Source: a virus
DNA length: 61,295 nt
Direction: 5' to 3' (one strand)
Virus record (IMG/VR): IMGVR_UViG_3300027719_000006
In this document: piece after piece, positions 1-61,295 of the stretch
Position numbering within the stretch: the stretch's first letter is position 1
Layout of the letters: each line of letters begins with the position of its first letter
Notes under the pieces: generated by a model
What the model was told of the DNA's origin: nothing
Database searches by the model: none
Seen by the model: the letters and a program-made list of their open reading frames with translations, nothing else
Made by a program: the position numbers and the translations under genes

Positions 1-127
1 ATAAAATTTAAATTGTTGGTAAGTATAAAAGACGGCGATATAAAATTCCACTTAAATAAAGCCATTGAAAACTATATCGACGATTTCGAATTAAAAAACG
101 ATATAAAAATTTTGGAAACGTCGAAAT
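1..127. repeat. 127-bp terminal direct repeat, copy 1 (identical to 61169..61295); circular-assembly overlap or terminal redundancy
   Basis: Read directly: bases 1..127 (ataaaatttaaattgttggtaag...ggaaacgtcgaaat) recur base-for-base at 61169..61295, so the window closes on itself with a unique length of 61168 bp. Confidence 0.95.
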
Positions 128-22308: not shown

Positions 22309-22309
22309 T

Positions 22310-40070: not shown

Positions 40071-40145
40071 TAGGATATGCTTATCTGATTAAGTAAAAGG
40101 TGTATCTTTTTTTTAAAAATAATAGCACTTTTATAAATATATATT

Positions 40146-40236
40146 AATCTTTACAATAAAAAATATATATTTATCTTTACAATAAAAAATATATATTATA
40201 TAATATATATTAATCTTTACAAAAATAAATATATAT
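40146..40236. repeat. three direct repeats of (A/T)ATCTTTACAA(T/A)AAA.A.ATATATAT upstream of the KilA-N gene (operator candidates)
   Basis: Copies start at 40146, 40172 and 40212. Each contains TTTACA, but no properly spaced -10 could be placed. Confidence 0.6.
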
Positions 40237-40252
40237 TAAGGAGAAATAAAAT

Positions 40253-41979: not shown

Positions 41980-42342
41980 TCCTTATAATTTTAATGCTTT
42001 AATTGTAACGTAATTACCTTATAAGGTCAATATTGAATAGTATAAATCTTATTAAAGTTTTTCATATAATATTTTAATAAGACTAAGAATATTTATTTTT
42101 ATTAAAGTACATTTAACTTTGTCCAATTAAATAGAAATCTGTTATCCTAATTTCAACTTTGAACATCTAAGCAACATAATCTCATGCAATATACTTCTCA
42201 TTAAAAATTTGCTACCTAAAACAACGTTTTAAATTATTTTCACATAATTACACTATCTAAACAAAACACGTCTTAAAATGCAAAATACTGCGTCAAACAA
42301 ATATCAGATTTACTTTTAACTGGAGATGTATTTTTTTATCTT

Positions 42343-42818
42343 GTTACACTCTATTTTCTTATAAAACATCCATTTTTGTAAAACTCGCTAATAGCTTGAA
42401 ACTTAACTATAAAAAAACTTGTTACACACCTACACGATTGTTATAACTTAAAAGTTAATTTAAAAATAGTGCTGTAACAAAAACAAAAAAAATGTTTTCA
42501 ATCTATTAGCTAGCTTGGATACTAAAGCTAGTGTAACGAAAAGTCGATGTTACAAAAAAAAAATCTACAATTCAGCATTCATCAATATTAGAGTGCTATG
42601 GCTTGCTGTAACAAAAAAATCAAAACACACACCCCTATATATAATATATATATAATTTTATAATTACCATTATATGTATTTTCTCCATTTTGCATATAGG
42701 GTATTAACATTATTTTTTGTTACACTGTTACACTTATATATATTATTCTTATAATGTACTAATATATATGCATATAGGGCTTTTACCCTGTAACATTTTA
42801 TGTAACTGAAAGTGTAAC
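42343..42818. other. candidate replication origin: at least 12 copies of GTTACA(C)/(G)TGTAAC iterons flanking an AT-only tract
   Basis: GTTACA-core copies occur at 42343, 42421, 42549, 42719 and 42727 (forward). Reverse copies are at 42473, 42531, 42607, 42789, 42801 and 42812. The alternating AT tract is at 42636..42660, and tgcatataggg occurs twice. The region is a 1.2-kb gene-free stretch upstream of the SF3 helicase operon. Confidence 0.55.
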
Positions 42819-43176
42819 AAAAACACTGTTTAAAGTAGTTGCATAAGTAAGTGTATTTTATTGCTTACATTTTTTAGGATATTTTTTGGTATACATACTA
42901 ATTTATTTATATACATTATATGTAATATACCATTTTTTATATATAGAAAGTGTACAAATTTTACTAGTTTTATGTATTTTATTGCTGTAATATATTTGCT
43001 ACAAAAAAGACATTTGTAAAAATGATAAAAATGACAAAACACGTGTTCTAATTGCTGCCAATAATTTCCTTTAATTGGATTTCGTTTTTACTCTTTACAA
43101 ATCAAGTTTGTTATTATACAATTTACTAGATAATGTATTAGGTAAAACTATTGATTATAAATTGGGGGAAATTAAA

Positions 43177-43382: not shown

Positions 43383-45599
43383 ATGACTACTCAAATTTGC
43401 AATCCCTCTCAATTAGAGGGAAAACTTAGATATCCTCATAACTACGAATACAAATATCATGAAGATAAATTTTTAGATGGGACATATGTTTATATAGAAA
43501 ATGGTGAAGCTCCACCAATATATGAGCATTTGTGCCATCAGAGAATAAGTGTAACAGGAAAATTTTATTCAATTGAAAATAATAGTTATTGTTTTGAAAT
43601 AAAAGTTGAAGATGTCTTCACTAACGAATATGGAATAATACAATCAAAAACAAATGTTGAAATATGCAGTGGTTCAACATTAACAGCTAAAAATTCTATA
43701 ATTAAGTTTTTATCAGATAAATTAGACATTTCAATAACAGAACTTAACTATAAACATTATGTTAAATTTTTTGTTGAGTTTTTAAAAATTAATAAAAATA
43801 ATTTAACAACAAAAAAGTCAACTTCAAGATTAGGATGGCATGATGATTTATTTGCTTCTGTAGATTCAGAATTATGTTACGATTTTTCTTCGGACAGTGG
43901 TTCATTTAGAAGCATGACTAATAATGTAAAACCAAAGGGAACGCTTAAAAGGTGGAAAGAAGTTATAAGAAGATATACTGCATATAAAGATTTTAATTTC
44001 ATAATGGGAACATCTATGGCAAGTGTATTATTAAAACCTCTTGGAGTAAGAAGTTATACAATCATTCCAATGGGCGATAGTGAAAATGGAAAAACATTCG
44101 CAGCTCATTGCGGATTAAGCATATATGGAAAACCTAGCTTTTTAAAAATTGGATCTAATGATACACAAAATGCAATATTAGAAAAAGCATATAGGTATCA
44201 AAACATATGCTTATTGATTGATGATCCTTATCGAAAAGGTAATGATAGTAAGGGCGTTATTGATTTTTACGCAATTGCTAATGAAAAAAATAGAGGAAGG
44301 CTAAACAAAGAATCCCAGTTGACTAAAGAAAAAAGCTGGAGACTCACAAGTATAATAACTACTGAATCTGCATTGATAAAAGATAATGCACAAGCCGGAG
44401 AACACAATAGAATACTGGAATACTATACGAAAAAAATGTACAAAAAAGAAGACCAAAAGCAGGTTGAAAGAGATTATGAACATCTGGAAGAAAATTATGG
44501 CTTAGTGCTGCCAATGGTTATAGACCTATTAAAAGAAATACCTATTGACCAATTAAAGCAGATATTGTTCTTAATTGAAGATGCTTTAAGTGATAAATTT
44601 GAAAACGGAAAACTCAAGGCACATATTAAAAGTGTAGCTATGTCTTGCTTAGGTTCATATATTCTTAATAAATATTTTCTTGAAACAAAAAAGGAGGACA
44701 ACAAATTACTTATGGAGTCAATAGAACTCGGAACATTTATTCTTGACAAGCTTATCGACAAAAAGGATTCTGTAACAGGTAAGGTTGCATTAGAAGAAAC
44801 ATATAACTTCTTCTCAACTAATTATCAAAAGTTTCAAAATGACGTGTTAAACGAAAGATTTGGAACTCTAAATGAATCAAAGATTATTTTCATAATTGCA
44901 CCACTTAAAAAGTATCTTGAAAATTTAGGATATAACTTTAAGGATTTCAAGAAATATGCAATTGATAATAAATTAGCAGAATATAAACAATTGCGAATAA
45001 ATGGAGTTGCAACATGGAGGCTTGTAATACCTCTAGAACAACCAAATGATAATAATGACAATAATACTACAAATAAAAAGATAACACTATTTTACACAGA
45101 TTATAGCTCCTTAGAAGTTAAGTCTGTGACTTTAGACATGAACAATAAAAAAGATGTTGCATGTCTTGACACGGATATAAAATATTTCAAAATTGAGAAT
45201 AACAACATAATTCCATTTGATTTATCAGAATATATTGCAAAAGATGAAAAAGCTGTCGAAATATTAAAAGAATACGCAGAGGAAAAAGAAGCAAAAATTG
45301 CTATAAATAGGGGAAATGATTTGTCGGCAATGATAACAGAAAATGAAATTGAACAGTCGAATGAAGAACTATTAGAGTTTGACATTAATACAGGAGAACT
45401 CAAAGAAGTCAAAGTTGTAGAACCTAATCGTGTTTACATATCTCGAAAAACGTATAATATAACAACACCACGTTTTACAGTGTCGACATATAAAAGTATT
45501 TATGTACAAAATTTGACACGACTAGGTGTCCGGTTAGGAGAAAACATTGAGAATTTAATTTTAAGATTAGCTGAATCGGCTAACTTGAATTTTGAATAA
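43383..45599 (+). CDS. DUF927-type SF3 replicative helicase / primase-helicase-like protein (738 aa)
   Basis: SRLGWHDDLF, then Walker A MGDSENGKTF, Walker B ICLLIDDP, and NEKNRGRL...WRLTSIITTESAL follow the DUF927 pattern. RBS gaggtg. Confidence 0.7.
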   Translation: MTTQICNPSQLEGKLRYPHNYEYKYHEDKFLDGTYVYIENGEAPPIYEHLCHQRISVTGKFYSIENNSYCFEIKVEDVFTNEYGIIQSKTNVEICSGSTLTAKNSIIKFLSDKLDISITELNYKHYVKFFVEFLKINKNNLTTKKSTSRLGWHDDLFASVDSELCYDFSSDSGSFRSMTNNVKPKGTLKRWKEVIRRYTAYKDFNFIMGTSMASVLLKPLGVRSYTIIPMGDSENGKTFAAHCGLSIYGKPSFLKIGSNDTQNAILEKAYRYQNICLLIDDPYRKGNDSKGVIDFYAIANEKNRGRLNKESQLTKEKSWRLTSIITTESALIKDNAQAGEHNRILEYYTKKMYKKEDQKQVERDYEHLEENYGLVLPMVIDLLKEIPIDQLKQILFLIEDALSDKFENGKLKAHIKSVAMSCLGSYILNKYFLETKKEDNKLLMESIELGTFILDKLIDKKDSVTGKVALEETYNFFSTNYQKFQNDVLNERFGTLNESKIIFIIAPLKKYLENLGYNFKDFKKYAIDNKLAEYKQLRINGVATWRLVIPLEQPNDNNDNNTTNKKITLFYTDYSSLEVKSVTLDMNNKKDVACLDTDIKYFKIENNNIIPFDLSEYIAKDEKAVEILKEYAEEKEAKIAINRGNDLSAMITENEIEQSNEELLEFDINTGELKEVKVVEPNRVYISRKTYNITTPRFTVSTYKSIYVQNLTRLGVRLGENIENLILRLAESANLNFE

Positions 45600-46950: not shown

Positions 46951-47156
46951 ATAGTTAACTTTTTAACTGTGAGTAATTCATTTATAGACTTACCGTTTTT
47001 CAATTGCACTTCTAATATTTCAAGTGCAGTATCTAGCAACACTGATTGGTTGAGTCTAGTGATTTCCTTTAACCGGACAATCCTTTGTACTTCATCCGGA
47101 TTAACTTTAAATGTTTTAGTAATGTCGAATTTATTTCTATTAATTAAACTTTTCAT
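46935..47156 (-). CDS. small protein (73 aa), possibly RHH-like
   Basis: ATGA overlap with the ParB-like gene. TKTFKVNPDEVQRIVRLKEITRLNQSVLLDTALEIL fits a strand-helix-helix. Tentative. Confidence 0.45.
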   Translation of the reverse strand: MKSLINRNKFDITKTFKVNPDEVQRIVRLKEITRLNQSVLLDTALEILEVQLKNGKSINELLTVKKLTIKKTL

Positions 47157-47812
47157 GATATCGTGTCCTTTCTATCTTCAAAATTACTTTCATATTCCTC
47201 CCATGACCTAGAAAATTCATGATTGCCAAAAGCTTCCTTTAATCCAGTTATTTGTTTAAGTCTCAATACTTCTTCAAATGACATTCCTAGCTTTTTACAT
47301 ATATATTCATCTGTCCACCCACTACTTACTAACTCCAATACAATTCCACTCATTGACTTTATTTTATGAGTTCCTCTCGCTCTGTTATGTCTTATTGTGC
47401 TTCCTATTCTTTCGTCAATTTCTTTATCTATTGTTGTGACTGGAAGCCTTCCAAATGTTCTTTTATATATATCCTTATGCTCATTACATATTCTATTTCT
47501 ATGAAACCCATCAACTATCTCTCTGTTACCTGTATCCATTTTATAGGTTACCACTGGTTGAGTATATCCATCTGACTTTATTGATTCATAAAGTAATTTC
47601 ATCTCAGGTCCAGCAACTTGGTTTGGATTATATTCATTTGCTTGTATATTTTCAATTTTTTCCCATAGCACGCAGTCAATAGGTTCATTGATTGGTGATA
47701 TTTTATGTAAACTACTTTTAATCATATTTAATGTATCTATTTTATTATCATCATCAAGTAAACTTATTTCATCAATTATTATTTTTAAAGCCTCTTCTAT
47801 TTTATTGTTCAT
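47153..47812 (-). CDS. ParB-like N-terminal (nuclease/NTPase-type) domain protein, IbrB-like (219 aa)
   Basis: IQANEYNPNQV...LLYESIKSDGYTQPVVTY...EIVDGFHRNRI is the ParB/Srx signature. ATG 47812 lies 9 nt after ggagg. Overlaps the PAPS-reductase-like gene. Confidence 0.7.
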   Translation of the reverse strand: MNNKIEEALKIIIDEISLLDDDNKIDTLNMIKSSLHKISPINEPIDCVLWEKIENIQANEYNPNQVAGPEMKLLYESIKSDGYTQPVVTYKMDTGNREIVDGFHRNRICNEHKDIYKRTFGRLPVTTIDKEIDERIGSTIRHNRARGTHKIKSMSGIVLELVSSGWTDEYICKKLGMSFEEVLRLKQITGLKEAFGNHEFSRSWEEYESNFEDRKDTIS

Positions 47813-49103
47813 TTTCAATTTCCTCCTTTAGTCTTGCCATTTCCTTAGTATTTGTAGGAATTGACAATAATTCTTTCCATTTTGATTTTAAATTTCTCAT
47901 GTCATTTTTGTCTGCTTTTGTAATTCCATAGTTGCATCCAGTTAAAGCAAAATCATTTTTTTCTATACATTTGGCTATTCTTTTCCATTGAATCCATCTT
48001 CCATTTTCTCTTCCTATTATTTCTTTTACAGTTTTTTTATCGATTTCATCAGGTATTTCGCTTTGATGTTTTATTCTGTTTTCTTTAATGTAGTGGTCAA
48101 TATATATTCTTATTTTTCTATAGTAATGCTTTTCTAACTCGTTGCAGTATAGACCAAGGCTTTCTAATAAAAAAACTGTATATTGCTCCCATGTCATATG
48201 ATTTGGTTTTTCTGTTCCATTGTTTCCTAATAAAGTTGTTTTTGCATACAATGCCCCAAAATTAGCTCCAGAAACTCTATTAACAATTTTTTCCCATGTA
48301 TCAGGTTCAAATTTAGCCCATTGGTTTAAACTATTTTTTTGTGACAATCCAAATGGCTGAGCTATCCTAGATTCATGAATTGACATTCCAGACTTAAACA
48401 TTAATTCATACACATAATTATATGAAAAATTGTATTTAGAAACACATCCCCATATATCTTGAGTTGACCAATCATAGATAGGATAAAAACTATAGCAACC
48501 ATTAAAATTATCTGTACTCCAATATAAATTTTTATACATATTTTTGCCAAGGGCAATAGCCCTAAACCTATTCAGACTTTCATCTGCTCTTATACCTTGT
48601 AGATTTGCAATCTTGTTAGTTTTGTTTATATGCTTGTACCAATTTGTAAAAGCCTCAAACATTCCCCTAAGGAACAAATCATTTACAAAATATTTATCAA
48701 AATTTTCAGGATAATTATTTTTATTAATTGAATCTTTTGGTAATTTTCTAACCCATTTCTTTTTAAATTTTTCATCCCAAGGATACCAGAATCTATCAAA
48801 AACACTAGTAGCATTATTAGCCTTAAATGACCAACATATGTGATAGAAATTTTTAATATTTGACAACTTTTTAAGTTCATATATATGATTTATAGTAGCC
48901 TCATATTGGGCTTCGTAATCGATAAACATAACATCAAAAGTTCTATTTCTTTCAATAGCTACTTTATTTAATAATTGAACTAATGTACTGCTATCTTTTC
49001 CACCAGATAGGCTTATGTATATATGCTCAAATTCATCAAAGATTAAATTAATTCTTTCAATTGAAGCATCATATACATTTTTATTAGTATATATTTTACC
49101 CAT
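47802..49103 (-). CDS. PAPS reductase-like PP-loop ATPase with a DUF3440-like C-terminus, IbrA-like (433 aa)
   Basis: PP-loop motif YISLSGGKDSSTL, plus GIRADESLNR. The long C-terminal extension is typical of IbrA-type proteins. RBS ggaggtg. Confidence 0.7.
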   Translation of the reverse strand: MGKIYTNKNVYDASIERINLIFDEFEHIYISLSGGKDSSTLVQLLNKVAIERNRTFDVMFIDYEAQYEATINHIYELKKLSNIKNFYHICWSFKANNATSVFDRFWYPWDEKFKKKWVRKLPKDSINKNNYPENFDKYFVNDLFLRGMFEAFTNWYKHINKTNKIANLQGIRADESLNRFRAIALGKNMYKNLYWSTDNFNGCYSFYPIYDWSTQDIWGCVSKYNFSYNYVYELMFKSGMSIHESRIAQPFGLSQKNSLNQWAKFEPDTWEKIVNRVSGANFGALYAKTTLLGNNGTEKPNHMTWEQYTVFLLESLGLYCNELEKHYYRKIRIYIDHYIKENRIKHQSEIPDEIDKKTVKEIIGRENGRWIQWKRIAKCIEKNDFALTGCNYGITKADKNDMRNLKSKWKELLSIPTNTKEMARLKEEIENEQ

Positions 49104-49133
49104 GTTCCCACCTCCATTTATATTAATATAATA

Positions 49134-50507
49134 TTACTTTATATTACTTTTATCAATACTTTTATCATTCTTATAATAATCAATCCACTTCTTAAAATTC
49201 TCAACCATGGATTCTTTTTTAAATAAGCAATTCAATATTTGTCTATCTACCGTACCAGTTGCATATATGTCATAAATATAAACTTCATCTTCCTGTCCAA
49301 TTCTATGTATTCTGTCTTCTGATTGCATTCTTGTAGCAAAATCAAAATCATTCGAATAATAAATAGCATTTCTACAAAATTGAAGATTAAGCCCATATCC
49401 TGCACATGTTTTATTTGCTATAAAAAATTGTGTTTCATTGCTAAATTTATTTATAGCCTCAATTCTATTTTTCTTTGTTACTGCTCCGTAAAATTCAACA
49501 ACTGAATCAGATCCAAATCTATCTTTGCAATATTGAGAAATCATTTTTATTTCATCAGTGTATTTACACCAGATGATACACTTATCTGTTACTATCCAGT
49601 TATCTAAAGTTTTAATTAATTCAATCATCCTTGGATTATCCATATAATCTTTAAAAAATGGTTTAGTCTTAATTCTATCTTTATATTCAGATACAATTTT
49701 TCTGCCACTCACAACATGTTGCAATGCTGTAAATAAACGATATATTGTTGTAGAATCATATTCATCAACTTGCATTAAAAAAGCATCTAGTACTTCGGCA
49801 TAATGTTCTTGTTGCTTGCCAGTTAAATAAAATCTGTACTCTTTATAATGCTTAGTTGGCAAACTTAGACAATCTGATTTCTTCACCTGATAAGTATATG
49901 GTGCTATTTTCTTACTAAGATAGTCAACATTTAAGGTTTTTCTTATTCTGCCATAATCATCATATTCAAGATGATTAGCAGCAAATGACCAAAACGATTT
50001 ATATCCTAGTATTCTCCAGTCTAAAATATACCATTGAGAGAATAAATCAGCTTCATTTTTGCTTACTGGTGTTCCATTTAAAATAAGTTTGTATTGACAT
50101 AATTCTGCTAGTCTTTGTATATTTTTAGTCCTCATTGCTGAAGGATTTTTGACTAAATTAGATTCATCTATCACAAGATAAGTTTTATATTGACTAACTA
50201 ATCTAAGTAATAATGAATTTAATCTAATCGAGCTTGATAAACTTTCTATTCCATATACAAAAATAATATTTGAATAATCATCCCCAATATGCTTATTCAA
50301 CTCTTTGACTATTTCTGACTTAACAGAACAAGGACATAACCATAAAACTTTATCAACCTTATTATTTTCTAATCTAAGATTGATAAGTTCTAAGGCTGTC
50401 CTTGTTTTACCTGTGCCTTGTTCCATATATAAAGCACCAATCTTTATCTTGGACAATTTTTCTATTGCAATAGACTGGTGCTCTAATAATTTAGATAACA
50501 GTTTCAT
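49134..50507 (-). CDS. SNF2-family helicase (457 aa)
   Basis: Motif I MEQGTGKTRTALE, motif II LVIDESNLVKN, and C-terminal helicase motifs (GLNLQ, QSEDRIHRIGQ). Confidence 0.8.
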   Translation of the reverse strand: MKLLSKLLEHQSIAIEKLSKIKIGALYMEQGTGKTRTALELINLRLENNKVDKVLWLCPCSVKSEIVKELNKHIGDDYSNIIFVYGIESLSSSIRLNSLLLRLVSQYKTYLVIDESNLVKNPSAMRTKNIQRLAELCQYKLILNGTPVSKNEADLFSQWYILDWRILGYKSFWSFAANHLEYDDYGRIRKTLNVDYLSKKIAPYTYQVKKSDCLSLPTKHYKEYRFYLTGKQQEHYAEVLDAFLMQVDEYDSTTIYRLFTALQHVVSGRKIVSEYKDRIKTKPFFKDYMDNPRMIELIKTLDNWIVTDKCIIWCKYTDEIKMISQYCKDRFGSDSVVEFYGAVTKKNRIEAINKFSNETQFFIANKTCAGYGLNLQFCRNAIYYSNDFDFATRMQSEDRIHRIGQEDEVYIYDIYATGTVDRQILNCLFKKESMVENFKKWIDYYKNDKSIDKSNIK

Positions 50508-50508
50508 T

Positions 50509-51663
50509 TTAATTGGAATCCTTTAAGTCATCTAAAATATCAACATTGCTGTTTAATATTTCTTCTAACTTATTTAATTCTTTATCTCTATTTTTTGAGG
50601 ATAATATTTTTTCAACTTTGAAGCTATCTTTATATTTTTCCATAGCTTCAACAGCCATTGGAGAAAACTTATATCCAAACATATCAGCAAAGTCTTTAAC
50701 CTCTTTCCATGCTGATAAGTCAATATGTGTTTTTCCATTAACATATTTTTGTGTTGGCAACTTTCTACTTTTCTCATAGTTATTTATGACTAGTTTTTTA
50801 TCTCTTGAATTAAACTTAATCCACTTAGTAAATTCTGGTATAAACATTGCGTTAATAGCTGATTGAATAACTTTATCATTTTCAAATTTTACAGGATAAC
50901 CATTTTTAAGAAAATGATTTCCGACTTCTGAAATTCTATCAATTGCATCATTATTTAATAATTCAAGTTGTTTTTCCCATTTATAACTACCACTATTCCA
51001 TTTATACCCATCTAGTCTTTTTATTAAATCAACCATATCTCTATCATAATCAAACTTGACTTCGATAGATTCTTTATTTGAAGTTATTTCAACAACATTA
51101 TGAGAAATTTCGTTTTCTGGATGAACAATTAATTCTTCGTTGATTTCATTCTCTATTTCTTTTTCAACTTTATTTTCAATAGATAGTTGAATATAAAGCT
51201 TATAGAACATACCTAACACAATAATAGTCTGCAAGCTTCTATTATCTATATACCATTTTGCAGATTTAAAATTATTAATAATAAAATCAACTAATTCTAC
51301 TGAATTAATTTGTTTCATATTTGAAAATACACTCATCTCATTTTCAAATACTCTAAAGTTTCCATTTTCAGAATCAAGATAAATAATTTTATTATCTATA
51401 TAATCAATCCATTTTTGTCTAAGCGTATTTGCCCAGATAACTTGTTTTTCACTACCTGATAATGCAGGCAATTCCATTTCTTTTGATTTTTCAGCAGCAG
51501 CAGCATTTTCTTTTTCTACTTTTCTTAAAAACGCTTCTTTGGCACATTCTTCGCAAAGGTTGTCAAATTTACCATCTGCAATATATTGTCTGTTTTTTAC
51601 TGGTCCAATTATATTTACTTTTCCTTCGTGCCCACATCTGAATTCTCCATAATACCATGCCAT
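50509..51663 (-). CDS. hypothetical protein (384 aa) with an N-terminal Cys/His zinc-ribbon-like segment
   Basis: ATG 51663 lies 8 nt after ggagg; the tracked start is a TTG inside the RBS. Motifs FRCGHEG...CEEC, then LSGSEKQVIWANTLRQ. Confidence 0.6.
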   Translation of the reverse strand: MAWYYGEFRCGHEGKVNIIGPVKNRQYIADGKFDNLCEECAKEAFLRKVEKENAAAAEKSKEMELPALSGSEKQVIWANTLRQKWIDYIDNKIIYLDSENGNFRVFENEMSVFSNMKQINSVELVDFIINNFKSAKWYIDNRSLQTIIVLGMFYKLYIQLSIENKVEKEIENEINEELIVHPENEISHNVVEITSNKESIEVKFDYDRDMVDLIKRLDGYKWNSGSYKWEKQLELLNNDAIDRISEVGNHFLKNGYPVKFENDKVIQSAINAMFIPEFTKWIKFNSRDKKLVINNYEKSRKLPTQKYVNGKTHIDLSAWKEVKDFADMFGYKFSPMAVEAMEKYKDSFKVEKILSSKNRDKELNKLEEILNSNVDILDDLKDSN

Positions 51664-51967
51664 AATTAATACCTCCAAAAATTTTATTTTTTTATCATAT
51701 AATAATTATACTACTTTATATTACTTTTGTACATACTTTTTAAAAATATTATTTATCATAATTATCAAATTAGCCTCACAGTTTTATTTAGTCTTACATA
51801 TATCCATTTAAAAATCTGTGTTGTCTCCATAACCTCGATAATAAAAATAACGCCTGAACACTGCTGTATCACTACAATACAAGCGATAGCTTGAAAGCAT
51901 TGATATCACTGCATTTGAATAACATTAACATGTTTATAGATTTTTGAGTTGAAAATTAGACTAAAAT

Positions 51968-51992
51968 AAAAAGACTATGGATAAGTCTTTTT
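51968..51992. terminator. bidirectional rho-independent terminator at the end of the membrane/FtsK operon
   Basis: Stem aaaaagact (51968..51976) / agtcttttt (51984..51992). Confidence 0.65.
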
Positions 51993-52200
51993 ATTTTAAG
52001 ATACTGTCAATTATAAATTTGTTGAAATTATTTTTTGAATTTAGTTTTGATAAGTATACTATATCTTTAAATGCAACTATGAAGAATATTACTGATGAAA
52101 TTAATGTGATATATAAAAATTCTTGATAGTCTATTGCATGTGTGAATGTGATACCTATACAGAAACTGCATAATATAGTTTTAATTACTAGCAGATACAT
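51991..52200 (-). CDS. small two-TM membrane protein (69 aa)
   Basis: ORF track. RBS agaggtg. Confidence 0.55.
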   Translation of the reverse strand: MYLLVIKTILCSFCIGITFTHAIDYQEFLYITLISSVIFFIVAFKDIVYLSKLNSKNNFNKFIIDSILK

Positions 52201-52202
52201 TG

Positions 52203-52715
52203 CTACACCTCTATTTTATTATTTATTATATATTCTATAAACTTTTTTAATATAAAGAAAGCACAATTTTTCTTTTCTTTTATAAAAAATATGTCCATGT
52301 CAAAATCTCTTTTTAGTGAATTCAATGAACCTTTGTAACAATTCGGATGAAAGTTAGATCTATAGTTATGATTTTCAATATCTGCATACATTGCATCTTC
52401 TATCATCAATAATATCCTTGCTCCAATTTCATTAGCTCGTCTAAATTCGTTTTTGAATCGTTCTCTTTTATTAGGTTCACCTTTTTTGCCAGTTTGAAAA
52501 TTACTAGCCAATTCATTTAAACGTTTTCTTTCTACGGCAATTTTTTTTGTGAAGTCTAACGGATTTCCTTTTAATCGGAATCCATAATCACCAAAATTAA
52601 GCTTTTCTCTATAAAATTTTATATTGTAGTTTTTTAGGACTCTAGCAATATGCCAGAAGTCCTGTTCCCTTGTATCTATTATTATTTCTATATTACTTAA
52701 TATTTTCTTAACCAT
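52203..52715 (-). CDS. ERCC4-type (XPF/Mus81/Hef-like) nuclease, resolvase candidate (170 aa)
   Basis: Motifs IIIDTREQ, NFGDYGF and AVERKRLNELASN reproduce the ERCC4 catalytic motif order. Confidence 0.7.
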   Translation of the reverse strand: MVKKILSNIEIIIDTREQDFWHIARVLKNYNIKFYREKLNFGDYGFRLKGNPLDFTKKIAVERKRLNELASNFQTGKKGEPNKRERFKNEFRRANEIGARILLMIEDAMYADIENHNYRSNFHPNCYKGSLNSLKRDFDMDIFFIKEKKNCAFFILKKFIEYIINNKIEV

Positions 52716-52716
52716 T

Positions 52717-52821
52717 TTAGTTATCTCCCTGAACTAATTCTAAAGTTATATAAATGCTTGCACACAATATGATACATAAACATGTTTTAAATCCTTCAGT
52801 TAAAAGTAAATCTATAATCAT
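52717..52821 (-). CDS. possible 34-aa hydrophobic peptide
   Basis: Hand-translated as MIIDLLLTEGFKTCLCIILCASIYITLELVQGDN. It exactly fills the gap between the FtsK-like and ERCC4 genes. RBS gaggtg lies 8 nt upstream. Confidence 0.35.
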   Translation of the reverse strand: MIIDLLLTEGFKTCLCIILCASIYITLELVQGDN

Positions 52822-52822
52822 G

Positions 52823-54361
52823 TTAGACACACCTCTCATCACCTAATATTTTTTCTTTTGATTCAAGCATTGGGACCTTTACAAATGTATATTCCCTATC
52901 ATTTTTCAATACAATTTCTCCTGGTTTAGTTGCTCGCATATCAACTATATCCAACACAACTTTAGATGCTGTTCCATCCGCAACAGGTAGACATATTCTG
53001 TTAGGCATATTTGTCTTTAGTGTATTGGGAATAATATCTATGCTTGGATATTGTGTAATAACAAATATTCTAAAACCGCTACTTCTACCTTGTTCCAACA
53101 ATTTTTTTAACATCTTTGCAAATGCTGACTTCTTATCAAAATGTGCAAATTCTTCTACAATGATTAATTGATAACCTAACTTATTAGGCTCATTTTCATT
53201 GTATTTTTCTATGTCTGTATATCCAAGTTTAGCAAATAGGTTGTTTCTTGTGTTCATTTCCTGCAAGCAACTTACTAACTGTGCTTCCATTAGATTGTCT
53301 TCACATGAATATCTTACATTTTTGTATCTCTCATAATATTTTAAACCCACTTTTTTAGGGTCAAACAAATGAAGAAATACATTGTCTTTTCCAGCTGTAA
53401 AAATACTACACAGCATAACATCTATTAAATTACTCTTACCACCTCCAGTAGTACCGGCTATTAGCCAGTGAGTATTTTTGATTAAGTTTATTATTTTTTG
53501 TTCTCCATCTTCTGTATATCCAAGTAAGACACACAAATCATGTTTATCATTTACAGCCTGTTGAATATCCTCAAATCGGTAAATATTGTCCTTCTTTGCA
53601 GTTGATAATTCGACATATCCATCTTTAGATTTCAAAGTAAATACCATACCTAGTTGATGACTGATTTCCTTTAACTGGGATTCCCAGTCTTTCAACATGC
53701 TATTAGATTTTATAATAAACTTTATATTTACAGGATTTTCTTTTTCTTTTATTTCTTCTATGTTAAGTTTTAAGTTTTTACATACTTGATTTATTCTACT
53801 TATTAGTGTATTCTCAACTTTTTTTGTTAATTCTACGTTTTTATTTATGTTAATTGTCGAAATTACATCATTTTTCATATCAATTATTGGTTTATCAATT
53901 TTATTTTCAAAGTTACAATCCTCAAAACAAATTATAACTTTTTGAAAACTTTTATAAAAATCAATTTTAGTTATTTCTTTGTTAAATATAATTTTTAGTT
54001 CTTCTTTTTTAGTAGTCCATTTATTTAATAGATAAGTGTTTTTTAAAATTAAATCATTTCCATGTTTTTTTATCAATTCTGTTTCAATGTTAACCTTTTC
54101 AAATTTTTTCTTTATCTTTTTATTTATATTTTCAAATTTTAAAATATTTATCATAACTTCAGGTACTGGAACAATTAAGAATAAAAATATGAATATTAAT
54201 TTTTCAGTTGCAATTGTAGGAATAGTTGATATCATTATCATTATAAATAAATATATTCTCTTCTTTAACAAGCTACTTTTCTGGAATAATTCTTTTATTC
54301 CAGAAAAGTATTTTTTCATAAATTCAAGCAAATCAAACTCTTTTTTATTATCATTTTTCAT
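52823..54361 (-). CDS. membrane-anchored FtsK/SpoIIIE-family DNA translocase-like ATPase (512 aa)
   Basis: N-terminal TM segments. Walker A LIAGTTGGGKSNL, Walker B QLIIVEEFAHF, and GFRIFVITQYPSIDIIPNTLKTNMPNRICLPV (compare aTQRPs..vi...iKaN.p.Ri). ATG 54361 follows agagga; the tracked alternative is 54421. Confidence 0.8.
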   Translation of the reverse strand: MKNDNKKEFDLLEFMKKYFSGIKELFQKSSLLKKRIYLFIMIMISTIPTIATEKLIFIFLFLIVPVPEVMINILKFENINKKIKKKFEKVNIETELIKKHGNDLILKNTYLLNKWTTKKEELKIIFNKEITKIDFYKSFQKVIICFEDCNFENKIDKPIIDMKNDVISTININKNVELTKKVENTLISRINQVCKNLKLNIEEIKEKENPVNIKFIIKSNSMLKDWESQLKEISHQLGMVFTLKSKDGYVELSTAKKDNIYRFEDIQQAVNDKHDLCVLLGYTEDGEQKIINLIKNTHWLIAGTTGGGKSNLIDVMLCSIFTAGKDNVFLHLFDPKKVGLKYYERYKNVRYSCEDNLMEAQLVSCLQEMNTRNNLFAKLGYTDIEKYNENEPNKLGYQLIIVEEFAHFDKKSAFAKMLKKLLEQGRSSGFRIFVITQYPSIDIIPNTLKTNMPNRICLPVADGTASKVVLDIVDMRATKPGEIVLKNDREYTFVKVPMLESKEKILGDERCV

Positions 54362-54431
54362 TTTATTATCCTCTTTAATTTTTATTTTTTTATCATGTGA
54401 AATTGTAAAGTGTTTTATCATGTGAAATTCT

Positions 54432-55069
54432 ACCTTGCGATACCTTGCGAAATTTTATTTATTACCTTGCGAAATATCAACATTACCTTGCGAATTCGCA
54501 AGGTTCAAAACCTTTATTTTTTTATTCTCAATTATAATTTTACCTTGCGATTTTAATTCATCTTTAAATTTTCTCAACTCATATGATGTTAGATTGAACA
54601 TATTCTCAAGGTCTGAATTTGTTTTCTCAACATAACCTTGCGAATTTCTCAAGGTATTTATCAAGTTGAGAAATTCATTTTCACAAGATGGCTTATTAAA
54701 TTTCGCAGGGTTAGTTGATACAAAATGGGTATACCTTGCGTCGTCTAATGCAGTCATATCAAGTGTCGCAATGTCTTTCACAGGGTTATTTGAAATGTCC
54801 GTATTTTCATCAAAAACTTTTTTGTTACCTTGCGAATTCTCAGGATAACCTTGCGAACCTTGCGATTCTACCTTGCGAATACCTTGCGAATTCTCAATGT
54901 TACCTTGCGATACCTTGCGAATACCTTGCGAAAAAACGAGGTTACCTTGCGAATCATCTTGCGATTTCTCAAGGTCTACCTTGCGAATTTTTTTACTACC
55001 TTGCGAACCTTGCGAAATAATTTTACTACCTTGCGAATTACCTTGCGAAATTTGTAAATTACCTTGCGA
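54432..55069. repeat. array of the 9-mer ACCTTGCGA: 21 perfect direct copies, 1 perfect inverted copy and several 8/9 variants
   Basis: Perfect copies start at 54432, 54442, 54464, 54485, 54542, 54635, 54827, 54848, 54857, 54870, 54881, 54902, 54912, 54923, 54944, 54978, 54998, 55007, 55028, 55040 and 55061. The inverted copy at 54496..54504 forms the 20-bp palindrome ACCTTGCGAATTCGCAAGGT. Confidence 0.95.
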
Positions 55070-55789
55070 AATTTTTATGTTTTCCTGATACAAATTTTCA
55101 ATTCTCATGATAAATTTATAAGAAAAGTTGAAAAATATTTTTGACAAGATTCCTTTATATAAATTTTCACTAGAATTTTTATTCAACATTTTAAAATCTT
55201 GGGCAATTGCTATTGCAAAAATTGATATAAAATCTATTGAAATACATAGTACTAAAGTTGTGATCATGTTTATCATGTTGCCATTATTTTTTCCTGAGAA
55301 AAAAGTGTAATTTCCATATACACTTATTCCAAGCAACATATATTTTAAGAAAATAGCCTTTGAAGCGTGTTGCCTAAAATGTTTTTTTACATTTGTATCC
55401 TGTTTGGATAGCAGAAACACTGTAAACTGAATCATGATTATTGCTGAGACAAAAGAAACAAGCTTAAAAGTATTTCCAATAAATAATTCATATAACCCAG
55501 CTATTGTAAGACAAGTTGAGATTATTGTTGCTAATGTTCCCCAGAAGTCAATTAACTTACCAGCCCTTACAATAGCTTTATCTTGTAGTACAGTTATTTT
55601 CAATTGTCTGATTCTTTCGTTAACCTTCAATTGGTCTTCTTCTGTTTTTATTTTATTTAGTTCAACTTCATTTTTTGTCTTAATTTCTGTGACTTGAAGT
55701 TGAGAATTGCTTTTCATTAGTTGTATTTTTTTTGCGTGAATTCTTTCTATGTCTTCTATGTTTGCATTTTTTCTAAATAATTTAAACAT
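54455..55789 (-). CDS. multi-pass membrane protein (444 aa) whose C-terminal half is encoded across the 9-mer array (SQG / IRKV repeats)
   Basis: RBS aggaggg. Coiled-coil N-terminus, 4 to 5 hydrophobic segments, then a repeat region and a non-repetitive tail (…LTSYELRKFKDELKSQGKIIIENKK…). The reading frame is open but the repeats are stop-free in several frames, so the extent of coding is uncertain. Confidence 0.6.
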   Translation of the reverse strand: MFKLFRKNANIEDIERIHAKKIQLMKSNSQLQVTEIKTKNEVELNKIKTEEDQLKVNERIRQLKITVLQDKAIVRAGKLIDFWGTLATIISTCLTIAGLYELFIGNTFKLVSFVSAIIMIQFTVFLLSKQDTNVKKHFRQHASKAIFLKYMLLGISVYGNYTFFSGKNNGNMINMITTLVLCISIDFISIFAIAIAQDFKMLNKNSSENLYKGILSKIFFNFSYKFIMRIENLYQENIKISQGNLQISQGNSQGSKIISQGSQGSKKIRKVDLEKSQDDSQGNLVFSQGIRKVSQGNIENSQGIRKVESQGSQGYPENSQGNKKVFDENTDISNNPVKDIATLDMTALDDARYTHFVSTNPAKFNKPSCENEFLNLINTLRNSQGYVEKTNSDLENMFNLTSYELRKFKDELKSQGKIIIENKKIKVLNLANSQGNVDISQGNK

Positions 55790-55813
55790 ATTACCCTCCT
55801 AAATAGAAAAAGC

Positions 55814-56041
55814 CTACATTAGGCTGTTTCCAATCGATTTAACAAATTTAATTACTATCATTCCTAAATCTCTAAATTGAAGTGGAAAGAATGCAAATGC
55901 TACAACTATACATCCTATTCCAAGTTTTTGTAATGTCCTTCCTGCTTGTTCCCCTTTTATCATTCCTTGAACCACTCCCCATAAAACTAGCCCAGTTGCT
56001 ATAGTTCCAAAGATTGGAGATAAATTAGTTAATATATCCAT
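55814..56041 (-). CDS. small two-TM membrane protein (75 aa), VirB2/Maff2-like architecture
   Basis: FGTIATGLVLWGVVQGMIKGEQAGRTLQKLGIGCIVVAFAFFP gives two TM segments around a short polar loop. Extended RBS gggggaactaag. Family assignment is tentative. Confidence 0.5.
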   Translation of the reverse strand: MDILTNLSPIFGTIATGLVLWGVVQGMIKGEQAGRTLQKLGIGCIVVAFAFFPLQFRDLGMIVIKFVKSIGNSLM

Positions 56042-56065
56042 CTTAGTTCCCCCTATTTATATTTT

Positions 56066-56206
56066 TTAAAATATTATTTTTTTTAATATTATCGTACTAA
56101 TTAAACTCATGACTAACATATAATAATCAGCCTGTGATACTGCTACTGTCCAGAGCATTATAACGATAAGTATAATTAATAATTTGTAACAAAGTTTTAT
56201 TTTCAT
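56066..56206 (-). CDS. possible 46-aa membrane peptide
   Basis: Hand-translated as MKIKLCYKLLIILIVIMLWTVAVSQADYYMLVMSLISTIILKKIIF. ATGA overlap with the upstream stop. Confidence 0.4.
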   Translation of the reverse strand: MKIKLCYKLLIILIVIMLWTVAVSQADYYMLVMSLISTIILKKIIF

Positions 56207-56619
56207 AAAAACTCATTCCTTTTTATAATTTTTATTCTGCCTTGTTTCTCAGCTTTGTAGATATCGTCTCTGTCCATGTTGTCTATATCTAAGTTTTCTA
56301 TGTCTTCTTGATTTCTTATTGTATATGCACCTAATAACCAGAAATACAATGGAATACTACAAAACATTGTTATGTTTGTAAGCAAGTTGTTAGCCCATAC
56401 AGGATTATTATTATGCAATAAAGTTGAAGTTGTGTCTTTGGTAATAATTGTAATAGTTGTTAATGCTATAAATGGTAAAAATGATATTACCTGTGTCAAT
56501 GATGGTTTTATGAAAAATTCTTTCATTCCAGTTAAAAGTAAACCCATTGTTTTAAACAAAACGGATTCCTTCTTAATTGGACATCTTATAATTTCTTTTT
56601 TCTCAATAATGTTATTCAT
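56203..56619 (-). CDS. membrane protein (138 aa)
   Basis: ORF track with hydrophobic segments. RBS aaggggaattaataag. Confidence 0.6.
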   Translation of the reverse strand: MNNIIEKKEIIRCPIKKESVLFKTMGLLLTGMKEFFIKPSLTQVISFLPFIALTTITIITKDTTSTLLHNNNPVWANNLLTNITMFCSIPLYFWLLGAYTIRNQEDIENLDIDNMDRDDIYKAEKQGRIKIIKRNEFL

Positions 56620-56647
56620 CTTATTAATTCCCCTTAAATTTTATTTT

Positions 56648-56893
56648 TTATTCAGTTAAACAATTTCTTAGTAAATCACTTATAAAAATGTCTAAATTAT
56701 AAGTTGACCTATACCAGTTAATCATTGTTAGTTGTTCATCTCTAAACATTTCTATTTTATAAATGACTTTGTTAACTGTTTCTTCCTTGTCGGATTCAAC
56801 CACGAATAGTGAGATAAATTCACTTCCAATGCTGTCGAAAAATCCATTTACTATTTTGAAATCTTTTTGCTTTAGCAATATTCTAAAATACAT
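56648..56893 (-). CDS. hypothetical protein (81 aa)
   Basis: ORF track. RBS ggag lies 8 nt upstream. Confidence 0.55.
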   Translation of the reverse strand: MYFRILLKQKDFKIVNGFFDSIGSEFISLFVVESDKEETVNKVIYKIEMFRDEQLTMINWYRSTYNLDIFISDLLRNCLTE

Positions 56894-57013: not shown

Positions 57014-57187
57014 TTATTTTTCTTTTGTTTTTTTATTCTTTTGTTTTTCTTTGTGCAACAAAAACATTTTTATTGCTGCAACTATGATAGAGTTCATACT
57101 TGGTATTTCTCTATCACTTTTTTTAATATTTTCTAATTCAGTCTTCATGTCTTCTGAAACGTAGACACTTATTTTTTTTCTGCCCAC
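57014..57187 (-). CDS. ribbon-helix-helix (CopG/Arc-like) protein (57 aa), GTG start
   Basis: Hand-translated as (M)GRKKISVYVSEDMKTELENIKKSDREIPSMNSIIVAAIKMFLLHKEKQKNKKTKEK. Classic strand-helix-helix layout. Too short for the ORF track. Confidence 0.55.
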   Translation of the reverse strand: MGRKKISVYVSEDMKTELENIKKSDREIPSMNSIIVAAIKMFLLHKEKQKNKKTKEK

Positions 57188-57211
57188 TGTTTTACATGCC
57201 TCCTTTTTACC

Positions 57212-57260
57212 TCTAATTTAACTCTAATTATTCCCCTAATTTGTATCTAATTTAACTCTA
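57212..57260. promoter_or_regulatory. two 15-bp direct repeats TCTAATTTAACTCTA (operator candidates) upstream of the RHH gene
   Basis: Perfect copies at 57212..57226 and 57246..57260, 34 bp start to start. A third partial copy (ctaattt) lies between them. Confidence 0.6.
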
Positions 57261-60787: not shown

Positions 60788-60961
60788 TTATTCCTCCTCG
60801 ATATAAGCATCTATAAGTCTTTTTTTAGACTTGTAGAATTCCTTTAAAGCCATTTCTACTATGGATGTCTTCTTCCAATTATAAAAATTAGCCAATATGT
60901 CTAGTATACTTATGCTCTCGGTATTTAGAGTAAAAGTTGCCCTTGTTTTATTTCTTGCCAT
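60788..60961 (-). CDS. ribbon-helix-helix protein (57 aa)
   Basis: Hand-translated as MARNKTRATFTLNTESISILDILANFYNWKKTSIVEMALKEFYKSKKRLIDAYIEEE. RBS aaggag. Too short for the ORF track. Confidence 0.6.
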   Translation of the reverse strand: MARNKTRATFTLNTESISILDILANFYNWKKTSIVEMALKEFYKSKKRLIDAYIEEE

Positions 60962-61108: not shown

Positions 61109-61295
61109 ATGAATAACTGTTTAAGTCAAGAAGTGGTAATAAATAAAAAAATAAACTATTTAACATGGATAAAATTTAAATTGTTGGTAAGTATAAAAGA
61201 CGGCGATATAAAATTCCACTTAAATAAAGCCATTGAAAACTATATCGACGATTTCGAATTAAAAAACGATATAAAAATTTTGGAAACGTCGAAAT
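61109..61295 (+). CDS. small RHH-like protein (62 aa); the ORF runs off the window end and closes at 127..129 after the circular wrap
   Basis: RBS gaggtga precedes ATG 61109. Sequence MNNCLSQEVVINKKINYLTWIKFKLLVSIKDGDIKFHLNKAIENYIDDFELKNDIKILETSK has a strand-helix-helix-like core. Confidence 0.55.
   Translation, partial: MNNCLSQEVVINKKINYLTWIKFKLLVSIKDGDIKFHLNKAIENYIDDFELKNDIKILETSK
61169..61295. repeat. 127-bp terminal direct repeat, copy 2 (identical to 1..127)
   Basis: Direct comparison of the two window ends. Confidence 0.95.

Follow-up and report, generated by a model that had tools for sequence, protein, structure and literature searches.

In Streptomyces, TraB reads 8-bp repeats in the locus clt, and an operon of small membrane proteins includes SpdB2, a protein with a coiled coil, four transmembrane (TM) segments and a C-terminal domain, which binds DNA (non-specifically), forms pores and binds TraB; homologues of SpdB2 have been noted on actinophages (PMC4447253). 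On the Clostridium perfringens plasmid pCW3, TcpK, a winged helix-turn-helix (wHTH) protein, binds 9-nt tandem boxes in the origin of transfer (oriT) beside TcpA, which has two TM segments and no gamma domain (PMC6137059); coupling proteins of the TcpA type also travel on mobilisable elements (PMC5357655). Among phage proteins, p16.7 of phi29 organises the DNA of its phage at the membrane, to which it is anchored, and combines a coiled coil with DNA binding (PMC4974454), and FtsK-like genes have long been noted in phages, with no function assigned to them (PMC4113786, PMC3706429). Here a locus is analysed within IMG/VR virus record IMGVR_UViG_3300027719_000006 (61,295 nucleotides, this whole stretch being termed the window), in which a minus-strand operon encodes an FtsK/SpoIIIE-family ATPase directly downstream of a 444-residue membrane protein, termed here the adaptor, whose gene carries an array of a short repeated DNA word. 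By functional analogy the module resembles both TraB with clt and SpdB2 and TcpA with TcpK and oriT; the array is selected as DNA, and the adaptor is its probable reader.

The word ACCTTGCGA is present in 22 exact copies, all of them within 54432..55069 (21 on the plus strand and one on the minus strand), as against 0.07 copies expected by shuffling; no exact copy occurs elsewhere in the genome. Allowing one mismatch adds about eight copies within the array stretch and four scattered near-matches elsewhere. The word is therefore neither dispersed nor strand-skewed genome-wide, all 22 of its 22 exact copies falling inside 640 bp. The real repeat unit is about 11 nt long, namely TACCTTGCGAA, and its copies form a main cluster and a proximal array (Table 1), with one copy pair making up a perfect 20-bp palindrome, ACCTTGCGAATTCGCAAGGT, at 54485-54504. 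Spacings in the main cluster are 9-13 and 20-21 bp, and its 15 exact copies are helically phased (Rayleigh R = 0.79 at 10.75 bp, null mean 0.43, p ~0.0006-0.002). A relative that is about 90% identical (L002; related loci are given here by such L-numbers) has an array with the same 22 copies. When the two are compared over the linker, C-terminal domain and spacer, mismatches affect 1/189 motif positions versus 41/444 other positions (Fisher p = 5.6e-6), that is, the motif is about 18-fold better conserved. Between close relatives, whole array units are gained or lost in frame and copy number varies.

The array is selected as DNA, not as protein, because the copies within the reading frame are translated in two frames (as SQG and as IRKV), because the array overruns the stop codon of the adaptor gene, and because of the helical phasing and the excess conservation of the motif. 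An initial annotation of this DNA, made by a model from the letters alone, had assigned the array to the 444-residue gene; this holds for most copies, but two of them (at 54432 and 54442) lie past the stop codon. Its further proposal that the array is a cis site acting at the DNA level is borne out by the clustering, the phasing, the constraint on the motif and the lack of exact copies elsewhere in the genome. A protein-level repeat (SQGN) was considered and rejected in view of the two frames, the non-coding copies and the predicted disorder of the linker; likewise a structured RNA or a CRISPR-like array was rejected, since Rfam gives nothing at E <= 0.1 and CRISPR repeats are not spaced at 9-21 bp.

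The array lies just upstream of the ATPase gene, coming to within 11 bp of the start codon, and it overlaps with promoter-like hexamers; autoregulators, moreover, commonly have cis sites in or beside their cognate gene. One alternative, then, is that the array is a mere autoregulatory operator or roadblock, or a slippage by-product in a low-complexity linker, and that the membrane wHTH protein serves some end of its own, with no relation to the ATPase, for instance in superinfection exclusion or the timing of lysis. The variation in copy number would agree with this, as would the fact that small membrane proteins of early operons are often exclusion factors. However, 22 phased copies are far more than an operator needs, constraint on the motif positions far exceeds that on the coding sequence around them, the wHTH and FtsK-like genes remain paired across lineages with differing words (see below), and the PADLOC matches are limited to domain-level similarity to SspH. 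This alternative is judged improbable.

The adaptor consists of an N-terminal coiled coil (residues 1-75), four TM helices (~80-245), a disordered linker (~245-360) and a winged helix (~367-427). This layout is taken from an alignment of its 13-cluster family together with AlphaFold2 (AF2) secondary structure, as hydropathy alone gives three to four TM segments (throughout, TM segments were assigned by a hydropathy scan and family matches by Pfam, PHROGs and NCBIfam). Across the family the four TM helices have strongly conserved loops and the linker is variable; it is the linker-coding region that carries the repeat array, and in the clade of the window the linker is about 110 residues longer than that of the relatives, the extra length being the array. 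The C-terminal unit has the order helix-helix-helix-strand-strand, its fold matches exclusively winged-helix domains, and the Pfam family HTH_36 matches 6/10 of the relatives' C-terminal wHTH domains that were tested (4e-6 to 0.07). The family is small (its 13 clusters), and a tblastn search with the adaptor gave no match in 50,697 phage or 72,556 plasmid records. From its sequence, the adaptor is likely to read the array through its C-terminal winged helix. The suggestion, also made in the initial annotation, that a neighbouring protein supplies the sequence recognition that the ATPase lacks has thus gained support from the winged-helix end of the adaptor, from the pairing of the two genes in five lineages and from the match between repeat word and recognition helix.

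Pairing and match were seen as follows. An adaptor homologue and an FtsK-like gene lie on the same strand, adjacent or at most ~3 kb apart, in five divergent lineages: the window with L002; L001; L003-5; L006; and L010. Among the closest relatives of the ATPase, a gene with a winged-helix end lies directly upstream in 4/4 contigs that could be read informatively (L007, L008, L010 and L012). In L008 this gene encodes a multi-TM protein whose linker has 12 copies of GGTTGAGA; in L007 it is 5'-truncated and of the L008 kind, with 10 copies of GGTTGAGA; in L010 it encodes a coiled-coil, four-TM protein without an array; and in L012 a small soluble wHTH protein. In L001 and L003-5, palindromes of the form TTGTC-N3-GACAA occur in the linker and ~1 kb downstream, and nowhere else in those loci. 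When the recognition helices are set beside the words, the window, L007 and L008 share TTC[G/T]CAA, and L001 and L003-5 share TTGTC; that is, the repeat word co-varies with the recognition helix across lineages. No gene of this winged-helix type was found beside 80 other IMG/VR FtsK-like genes that were checked, and the pairing is therefore restricted to a small clade; the module is confined to a small clade of uncultivated, low-GC (guanine plus cytosine) siphoviruses. In L021, an IMG/VR FtsK-like open reading frame (ORF) of 604 aa (5560-7374) weakly matches the wHTH profile (E = 0.0012) and, from this match, may be a fusion of adaptor head and motor.

The ATPase matches Pfam FtsK_SpoIIIE (PF01580) at 6.6e-17 (62.1 bits, cut-off 24) and PHROG 1358 (FtsK/SpoIIIE-like) at 4e-51. 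It has a Walker A motif (GTTGGGKS), a Walker B motif (IIVEEF) and the motif TQYPS...KTNMPNRI, and residues G323, G328, K329, E424, R446, T456 and Q457 are invariant in its alignment. In the AF2 model (predicted local distance difference test score, pLDDT, 80) two TM helices at the N-terminus are followed by two small alpha/beta domains and then by a RecA-like core, with nothing beyond; the protein ends ~10 residues past the last strand of the beta domain and does not match PF09397 (gamma), though the cellular FtsK matches all have that domain. An FtsK/SpoIIIE-family ATPase with intact Walker motifs and TQxPS motif but no gamma domain, as initially annotated, is hence what Pfam, PHROGs, the motifs and the model agree upon. 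An exhaustive search from this protein recovered only distant relatives, at ~33% identity; nearly all of the relatives' FtsK-like proteins have two to three N-terminal TM helices.

With Foldseek, the model matches the FtsK motor on double-stranded DNA (dsDNA) at 1e-24 to 1e-22 (best 1.6e-24) over ~370 columns with a target TM-score of 0.70-0.72, and TcpA (pCW3) at 3e-21; EssC/EccC follow at 1e-13 and weaker, with HerA and VirB4 far behind. Sequence searches against the Protein Data Bank (PDB) give FtsK at 1e-20 and TcpA at 2e-11, so that fold and sequence alike place FtsK and TcpA well ahead of EssC/EccC. The NCBIfam models of type VII secretion score far under their cut-offs, and the plasmid_TraB model (NF041214) gives 40 bits against a cut-off of 800. 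In its modelled fold the ATPase is thus nearest FtsK and TcpA, not the secretion ATPases, and the first condition that the initial annotation had named as refuting it, a grouping with secretion ATPases, does not hold. A type VII or other secretion ATPase was rejected on these much weaker matches and on the presence of one ATPase domain versus three in EssC/EccC. A packaging motor was rejected as well, the window having a normal terminase, portal and HK97-type capsid, and so was an anti-phage defence system, because PADLOC gives domain-level similarity to SspH and mads8 for the ATPase only and none for the other products. A second dsDNA motor in a tailed phage had been called unexpected; FtsK-like genes, however, are present in 373 deposited phage genomes, and the motor alone is unsurprising because such genes are frequent in phages.

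A further alternative takes up the likeness to TcpA: the array would be oriT-like, the adaptor a TcpK-like relaxosome accessory, and the ATPase a TcpA-type coupling protein that docks the phage genome onto the type IV secretion system (T4SS) of a co-resident conjugative element, giving the phage a way to spread through conjugation. The ATPase does have the exact architecture of TcpA (two TM segments, an FtsK-like domain and no gamma), besides the match to TcpA structures at ~3e-21; TcpK binds tandem boxes of 9 nt (PMC6137059); TcpA-type coupling proteins occur on mobilisable elements and small plasmids devoid of a T4SS (PMC5357655); a similar TM-FtsK gene is found on a 5-kb Fusobacterium plasmid; and in Bacillus phage Palmer an FtsK-like gene is followed by that of a Replic_Relax (MobC-type) protein. 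Set against this, no homologue of a relaxase, VirB4 or VirB6 was found among the scanned products of the complete 61-kb genome, FtsK matches slightly better than TcpA, and the supposed accessory is an integral membrane protein, unlike TcpK, to which no homology was detected. Such a mobilisation role has, in our judgement, only a slim chance of being correct.

Both of these other replicons merit description in their own right. The Fusobacterium polymorphum plasmid p40A2 (5056 bp) encodes a TM-anchored protein with an FtsK/SpoIIIE domain (847-2142) and a rolling-circle Rep-like protein, and TACCTACTA occurs on it six times. The plasmid is possibly a minimal unit for FtsK-based transfer or mobilisation in a low-GC Gram-negative bacterium. 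In phage Palmer (27328-29053), the FtsK/SpoIIIE-like gp27 is directly followed by gp28, whose Pfam match is to Replic_Relax, a family of MobC-type relaxases (PMC5357655), although the record annotates it as a replication initiation protein. FtsK-like genes of other phages may therefore likewise belong to relaxase or initiator pairs.

The reading put forward here as the simplest that suits the anatomy, tentatively and as one that falls somewhat short of being probable, is that of a two-part, membrane-embedded module handling phage DNA, in which the adaptor binds the array, tethers the DNA and loads the pump. The C-terminal winged helix of the adaptor would bind the TACCTTGCGAA sites; since these sites are helically phased, ~22-30 of them would lie on one face of ~640 bp of DNA, which the adaptor would coat. 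Its four TM helices and coiled coil would tie the coated DNA to the cytoplasmic membrane. The ATPase, encoded 34 bp downstream, would be a hexameric dsDNA pump with a two-TM anchor and no reading domain, and the adaptor would recruit or load it at the single array locus, so that the tasks of recognition and pumping, united in a single protein in FtsK, SpoIIIE and TraB, would here fall to two separate membrane proteins. The operon's small membrane proteins would complete the complex as accessory parts. With such a module the phage chromosome might be held and moved at a membrane or septum, or passed through it, either for segregation or for translocation to a neighbouring compartment or daughter cell. 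What the data show is the anatomy, the selection on the array as DNA, the conserved pairing of the genes and the co-variation of word and recognition helix; binding of the array by the adaptor, its contact with the pump, the direction of pumping and the biological purpose we infer. The purposes suggested in the initial annotation (cell-to-cell or forespore transfer, episome segregation, exclusion) are all conjectural.

Several observations weigh against this reading. L006 and L010 have no obvious array, and the 21:1 strand bias of the array is not kept in relatives (L008 has 5 forward and 7 reverse copies), so that a polar signal like the FtsK orienting polar sequences (KOPS) is unlikely as a general rule. 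Across lineages the FtsK-like proteins are ~25% identical and the adaptor TM domains ~50%, and the pump partner may therefore have been exchanged. The window's own wHTH domain has no Pfam match, and those of relatives weakly match the replication-initiator types Phage_rep_O, RepL, RepA_N and DnaD_N. The AF2 model of the adaptor is of low confidence (pLDDT 43 overall, 60-70 in the wHTH region) and supports a generic wHTH assignment only. The adaptor has no detectable homology to pIJ101 SpdB, TcpK or FtsK gamma: an hhalign comparison with pIJ101 SpdB gives a probability of 0.4%, and the wHTH profile, when run against PDB sequences, recovers generic wHTH regulators and weak RepA_N matches, not TcpK. 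Finally, the search for a host (see below) gave no septum, spore or filament biology that could be invoked.

The initiator-type matches bear on the main rival explanation, namely that the array is a replication origin, or an auxiliary one, within the gene of the very protein that binds it. Tethered to the membrane, this protein would be an initiator or an organiser of replication that starts or localises phage DNA synthesis there, and the FtsK-like ATPase would be either a downstream accessory (in a helicase or loader slot) or unrelated. Phage origins inside initiator genes are known from lambda (O/ori) and SPP1 (gene 38/oriL), and here too it is the interdomain linker of a putative DNA-binding protein whose coding stretch contains the sites. 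The wHTH affinities (HTH_36, the four weak initiator types and the weak RepA_N structures) point the same way; the module always lies amid replication and recombination genes, the L001 copy directly after genes for a DUF5906 helicase, a DnaG-type zinc ribbon and RepL; and a wHTH gene with sites followed by an ATPase gene mimics the order of initiator followed by loader or helicase. Yet no unusually unstable AT-rich element lies beside the array, whose flanks are only 1.2-1.6 standard deviations less stable than the genome mean, with the 25 least stable windows elsewhere; to our knowledge, an initiator with four TM helices would be unprecedented; the partner ATPase has the fold of a dsDNA pump, not that of DnaB, DnaC or superfamily 3 (SF3) helicases; the array is missing in some family members; and 22 to 30 sites of 9-11 bp are atypical of iterons. 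There is, moreover, a more conventional candidate: at 42341-42820, among AT-rich TATATA tracts, lie 6/13 of the genomic copies of TTGTTACA, in both orientations, inside a 1.1-kb non-coding region directly upstream of a gene for a D5/P4-type primase-helicase (43383-45599), and this cluster is, from its sequence features, a candidate for a conventional replication origin. On balance an origin within the adaptor gene is considered unlikely, although more likely than the other alternatives.

The genome as a whole is a complete tailed-phage genome of low GC content (~28%). Because the two ends of the window (1-127 and 61169-61295) share 127 identical bases, the assembly is complete and circular, with a length of 61,168 bp. 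Among its products are a tape-measure protein, an HK97-type capsid, a portal, a large terminase and an amidase endolysin; tRNA genes are absent. Among the products scanned there was no integrase, CI-type repressor or other lysogeny gene, no relaxase, VirB4 or VirB6 match over the complete 61 kb, and no ParA, ParM or TubZ NTPase; the sole ParB-like protein is paired with a protein resembling a phosphoadenosine phosphosulphate (PAPS) reductase. Close relatives are all metagenomic (every cluster at 90% identity), on contigs of 55-64.5 kb of which none is embedded in host DNA, and megablast gave no DNA-level match to a deposited phage or plasmid. The search for a clue to the host yielded one match in genome collections, a 13-kb contig of a metagenome-assembled genome labelled Spirochaetales, which is probably a binned phage; relatives of the portal are scattered across Gram-positive phages at 30-34% identity and do not identify the host.

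Such a setting would suit a partition system of an extrachromosomal prophage, in which the array is the centromere, the membrane wHTH protein the centromere binder, and the FtsK-like ATPase a replacement for ParA, ParM or TubZ. ParR and TubR centromeres typically consist of short direct repeats phased at ~10.5 bp, much as the repeats are here; the circular genome is complete and no integrase, ParA, ParM or TubZ was found among its scanned products; and the related contigs (55-64.5 kb) are never within host DNA. On the other hand, neither a repressor nor any other lysogeny gene was found in that scan, L001 has the module plus an integrase, and we know of no FtsK-type motor that is established as a partition motor for plasmids. 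A partition role is accordingly given little credence.

Returning to the proposed tether-and-pump module, a more far-reaching version of it is virion-independent spread: a dsDNA conduit of the TraB/Spd kind, built after infection from the adaptor, the pump and the small membrane proteins, would, starting from the array, pump a copy of the phage chromosome through a septum or cell-cell junction into a sister cell, a filament neighbour or a forespore, or would couple it to a resident conjugation pore. We think this quite unlikely; if true, it would mean that a tailed phage has a conjugation-like device for DNA transfer outside the actinomycetes.

The operon comprises nine tightly packed minus-strand ORFs, from 56893 down to 51991, with short gaps or overlaps; these and the associated features are collected in Table 1.

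Table 1. Genes and other features of the operon and its repeat array, in the order of transcription.
Feature	Position	Strand	Basis or remarks
81-aa soluble protein, first gene of the unit	56648..56893	-	TM-free in hydropathy scan; weak PHROG match only
138-aa membrane protein	56203..56619	-	TM at residues 41-59, hydrophobic C-terminal half
46-aa single-TM protein	56066..56206	-	ORF, hydropathy
75-aa two-TM protein	55814..56041	-	Hydropathy
Terminator-like hairpin AGCCTAATGTAGGCT followed by T-run, between small-protein genes and adaptor gene	55811..55825	-	Terminator scan
444-aa adaptor gene	54455..55789	-	Stop codon 54455-54457
Main array cluster, 15 exact copies plus degenerate inverted copies	54827..55069		Within linker-coding region
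Proximal array, 7 exact copies	54432..54643		Spans 3' end of adaptor gene and spacer before ATPase gene
FtsK/SpoIIIE-family ATPase gene	52823..54421	-	532 aa; public gene call from M21 = 54361, 512 aa
41-aa single-TM protein, gene overlapping 3' end of ATPase gene	52717..52842	-	ORF, hydropathy
ERCC4 (XPF/Hef-type) nuclease, 170 aa	52203..52715	-	Pfam 4.8e-15, PHROG 3490 at 4e-31
69-aa two-TM protein, last gene of the unit	51991..52200	-	ORF, hydropathy; kept in L002
AT-rich hairpin plus T-run AAAGACTTATCCATAGTCTTTTTATTTT after last gene	51965..51993	-	Read in sequence; not called by consensus scan

All ORFs lie on the minus strand at the positions first annotated, and the five or six small or multi-pass membrane proteins then reported correspond, by hydropathy scan, to five small ones (138, 46, 75, 41 and 69 aa). 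One of these, the 138-aa protein, has been kept beside the FtsK-like gene in L006, its homologue there being a 128-aa two-TM protein encoded just upstream of that gene (E = 6e-6); the 41-aa protein has a 34-aa counterpart in L002. The 75-aa protein, by contrast, had been labelled VirB2/Maff2-like on the basis of its two-TM layout only, and this label is unsupported: it has no family match in Pfam, PHROGs or NCBIfam, and no significant similarity to the 83-aa protein of L006. The ERCC4 nuclease is co-transcribed with the module here and its Pfam match, which exceeds the threshold, stands, but its linkage in relatives is loose, the homologues in L001, L004 and L005 lying 4-8 kb off the FtsK-like gene or on the opposite strand. 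As for the terminator annotated at the end of the operon, a hairpin is indeed seen there and, as read from the sequence, is probably the end of the transcription unit, though it is AT-rich and was not called by the scan. The other hairpin lies after the fourth gene, where it may divide the operon into two transcripts or be a point of internal attenuation.

Between the operon and the next gene, ~310 bp (51679-51990) are non-coding and have no Rfam match; L002 has a 185-aa gene there. Just downstream (47153-51678, minus strand) lies a set of genes for a ParB-like protein, a PAPS-reductase/DUF3440 protein, an SNF2 helicase and a 389-aa uncharacterised protein, of which the first two form an IbrB/IbrA-like pair with weak similarity to DndC; the set is kept in L002 and may be a DNA-modification or anti-defence module. 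On the other side, the operon is preceded by a gene for a ribbon-helix-helix-like protein (57014-57187, 57 aa; a similar 57-aa gene lies at 60788-60961), directly upstream of which, at 57206-57260, are ~5 copies of an 11-bp tandem repeat, TTAGAGTTAAA, that is probably an operator. Elsewhere in the genome, its least stable DNA (40135-40238) contains three copies of an AT-rich repeat of 26-36 nt and is a point of transcription divergence between minus-strand late or early genes and a plus-strand KilA-N gene. Between the capsid and head-morphogenesis genes, a minus-strand cluster (18211-24966) resembles those for the synthesis of nonulosonic acids (pseudaminic or legionaminic acid-like): it encodes a PseB-like dehydratase, an aminotransferase, a NeuB-like protein, two cytidylyltransferases and a short-chain dehydrogenase, together with two GT29 sialyltransferase-like proteins, one of which is fused to a methyltransferase. 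This cluster is unusual cargo for a siphovirus and could serve to glycosylate virions or the host surface.

Annotations of FtsK/SpoIIIE-like genes in phages go back more than 15 years and extend to hundreds of genomes, with no function assigned to any of these genes. The present locus offers a testable handle on them, in that it combines a cis site of 22 identical words, a candidate reader and a pump without a reader, and it suggests that the logic of FtsK, SpoIIIE and TraB (read a short word, pump dsDNA) can be shared between a pair of membrane proteins. Should the pump carry phage DNA from one compartment or cell to another, the persistence and spread of tailed phages would have to be viewed afresh, with respect to spore entrapment, carrier states and virion-free spread; should the module rather serve to organise replication at the membrane, it would parallel phi29 p16.7, but with sequence specificity. 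The pair of array and wHTH domain could also become an orthogonal tool for tethering DNA to a membrane. The combination of an SpdB2-like membrane reader, an array inside the reader's own linker and a membrane pump lacking a reader appears not to have been described before.

How the module stands to known systems may be summarised by working inward from the more distant ones. EssC and EccC have three tandem FtsK-like ATPase domains (plus forkhead-associated domains in EssC) versus the one here. ParR/parC and TubR/tubC share the phased short repeats, but their cognate ParA, ParM or TubZ was not found among the scanned products of the window. The FtsK-like proteins annotated in phages (those of Bacillus gamma-like and SPO1-like phages, Pagevirus and mycobacteriophage Cluster J) have the same Pfam domain and belong to PHROGs 1358 and 3551, but are at most 31% identical to the window's ATPase, and in the motor domain only; those of Cluster J keep a gamma domain and lack the membrane part (PMC3706429), and, by tblastn, none of the deposited phages encodes the adaptor.

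In lambda O/ori and SPP1 gene 38/oriL, repeated sites likewise lie in the linker-coding part of the gene of a DNA-binding protein (putative in the adaptor), and the location in a replication and recombination region is a further point in common with phage initiators, to which the initiator-type affinities of the wHTH domains, weak as they are, may add another; known initiators, however, are soluble, and here there is no adjacent unwinding element and the partner is of the FtsK type rather than a helicase or loader. The phi29 protein p16.7 likewise combines a membrane anchor, a coiled coil and DNA binding (putative for the adaptor), but it binds DNA non-specifically and has no cognate array. 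With FtsK/KOPS and with SpoIIIE and its recognition sequences (SRS), the module shares the alpha and beta motor fold, a membrane anchor and a short word read, putatively here, by a winged helix; it differs in that the phage motor has no gamma domain and two rather than four TM segments, and in that its word is packed into one 640-bp locus, not dispersed and strand-skewed, with an orientation bias that relatives do not keep.

The closest parallels are pCW3 and the Streptomyces plasmids pSVH1 and pIJ101. pCW3 likewise has a two-TM, gamma-less FtsK-like ATPase (TcpA, with its strong structural similarity to the phage protein), a separate wHTH protein reading a tandem 9-nt box (putatively so in the phage), and a low-GC setting; but TcpK is small, soluble and not detectably related to the adaptor, the system needs the relaxase TcpM and a T4SS (TcpF, TcpH and others), none of which was found among the scanned products of the phage genome, and it has few boxes compared with the 22 sites here. 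The Streptomyces system differs in its setting, as the module described here belongs to a tailed phage with a low-GC, probably non-mycelial host, and the phage ATPase reaches only 40 bits, against the cut-off of 800, in the plasmid_TraB model; SpdB2, furthermore, binds DNA non-specifically, and no homology of the adaptor to pIJ101 SpdB was detected. Alike in both are an FtsK-like, membrane-associated hexameric dsDNA pump (predicted here), an operon of small membrane proteins and, by analogy, a single cis locus of short direct repeats near the motor gene (8 bp there, 9-11 bp here); the domain layout of the adaptor, moreover, agrees with that of SpdB2, with a coiled coil at the N-terminus, then four TM helices, and DNA binding at the C-terminus (putative in the adaptor). 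TraB has its clt-reading winged helix on the motor itself, whereas here the corresponding domain would be carried by the SpdB2-like partner, the motor having none.

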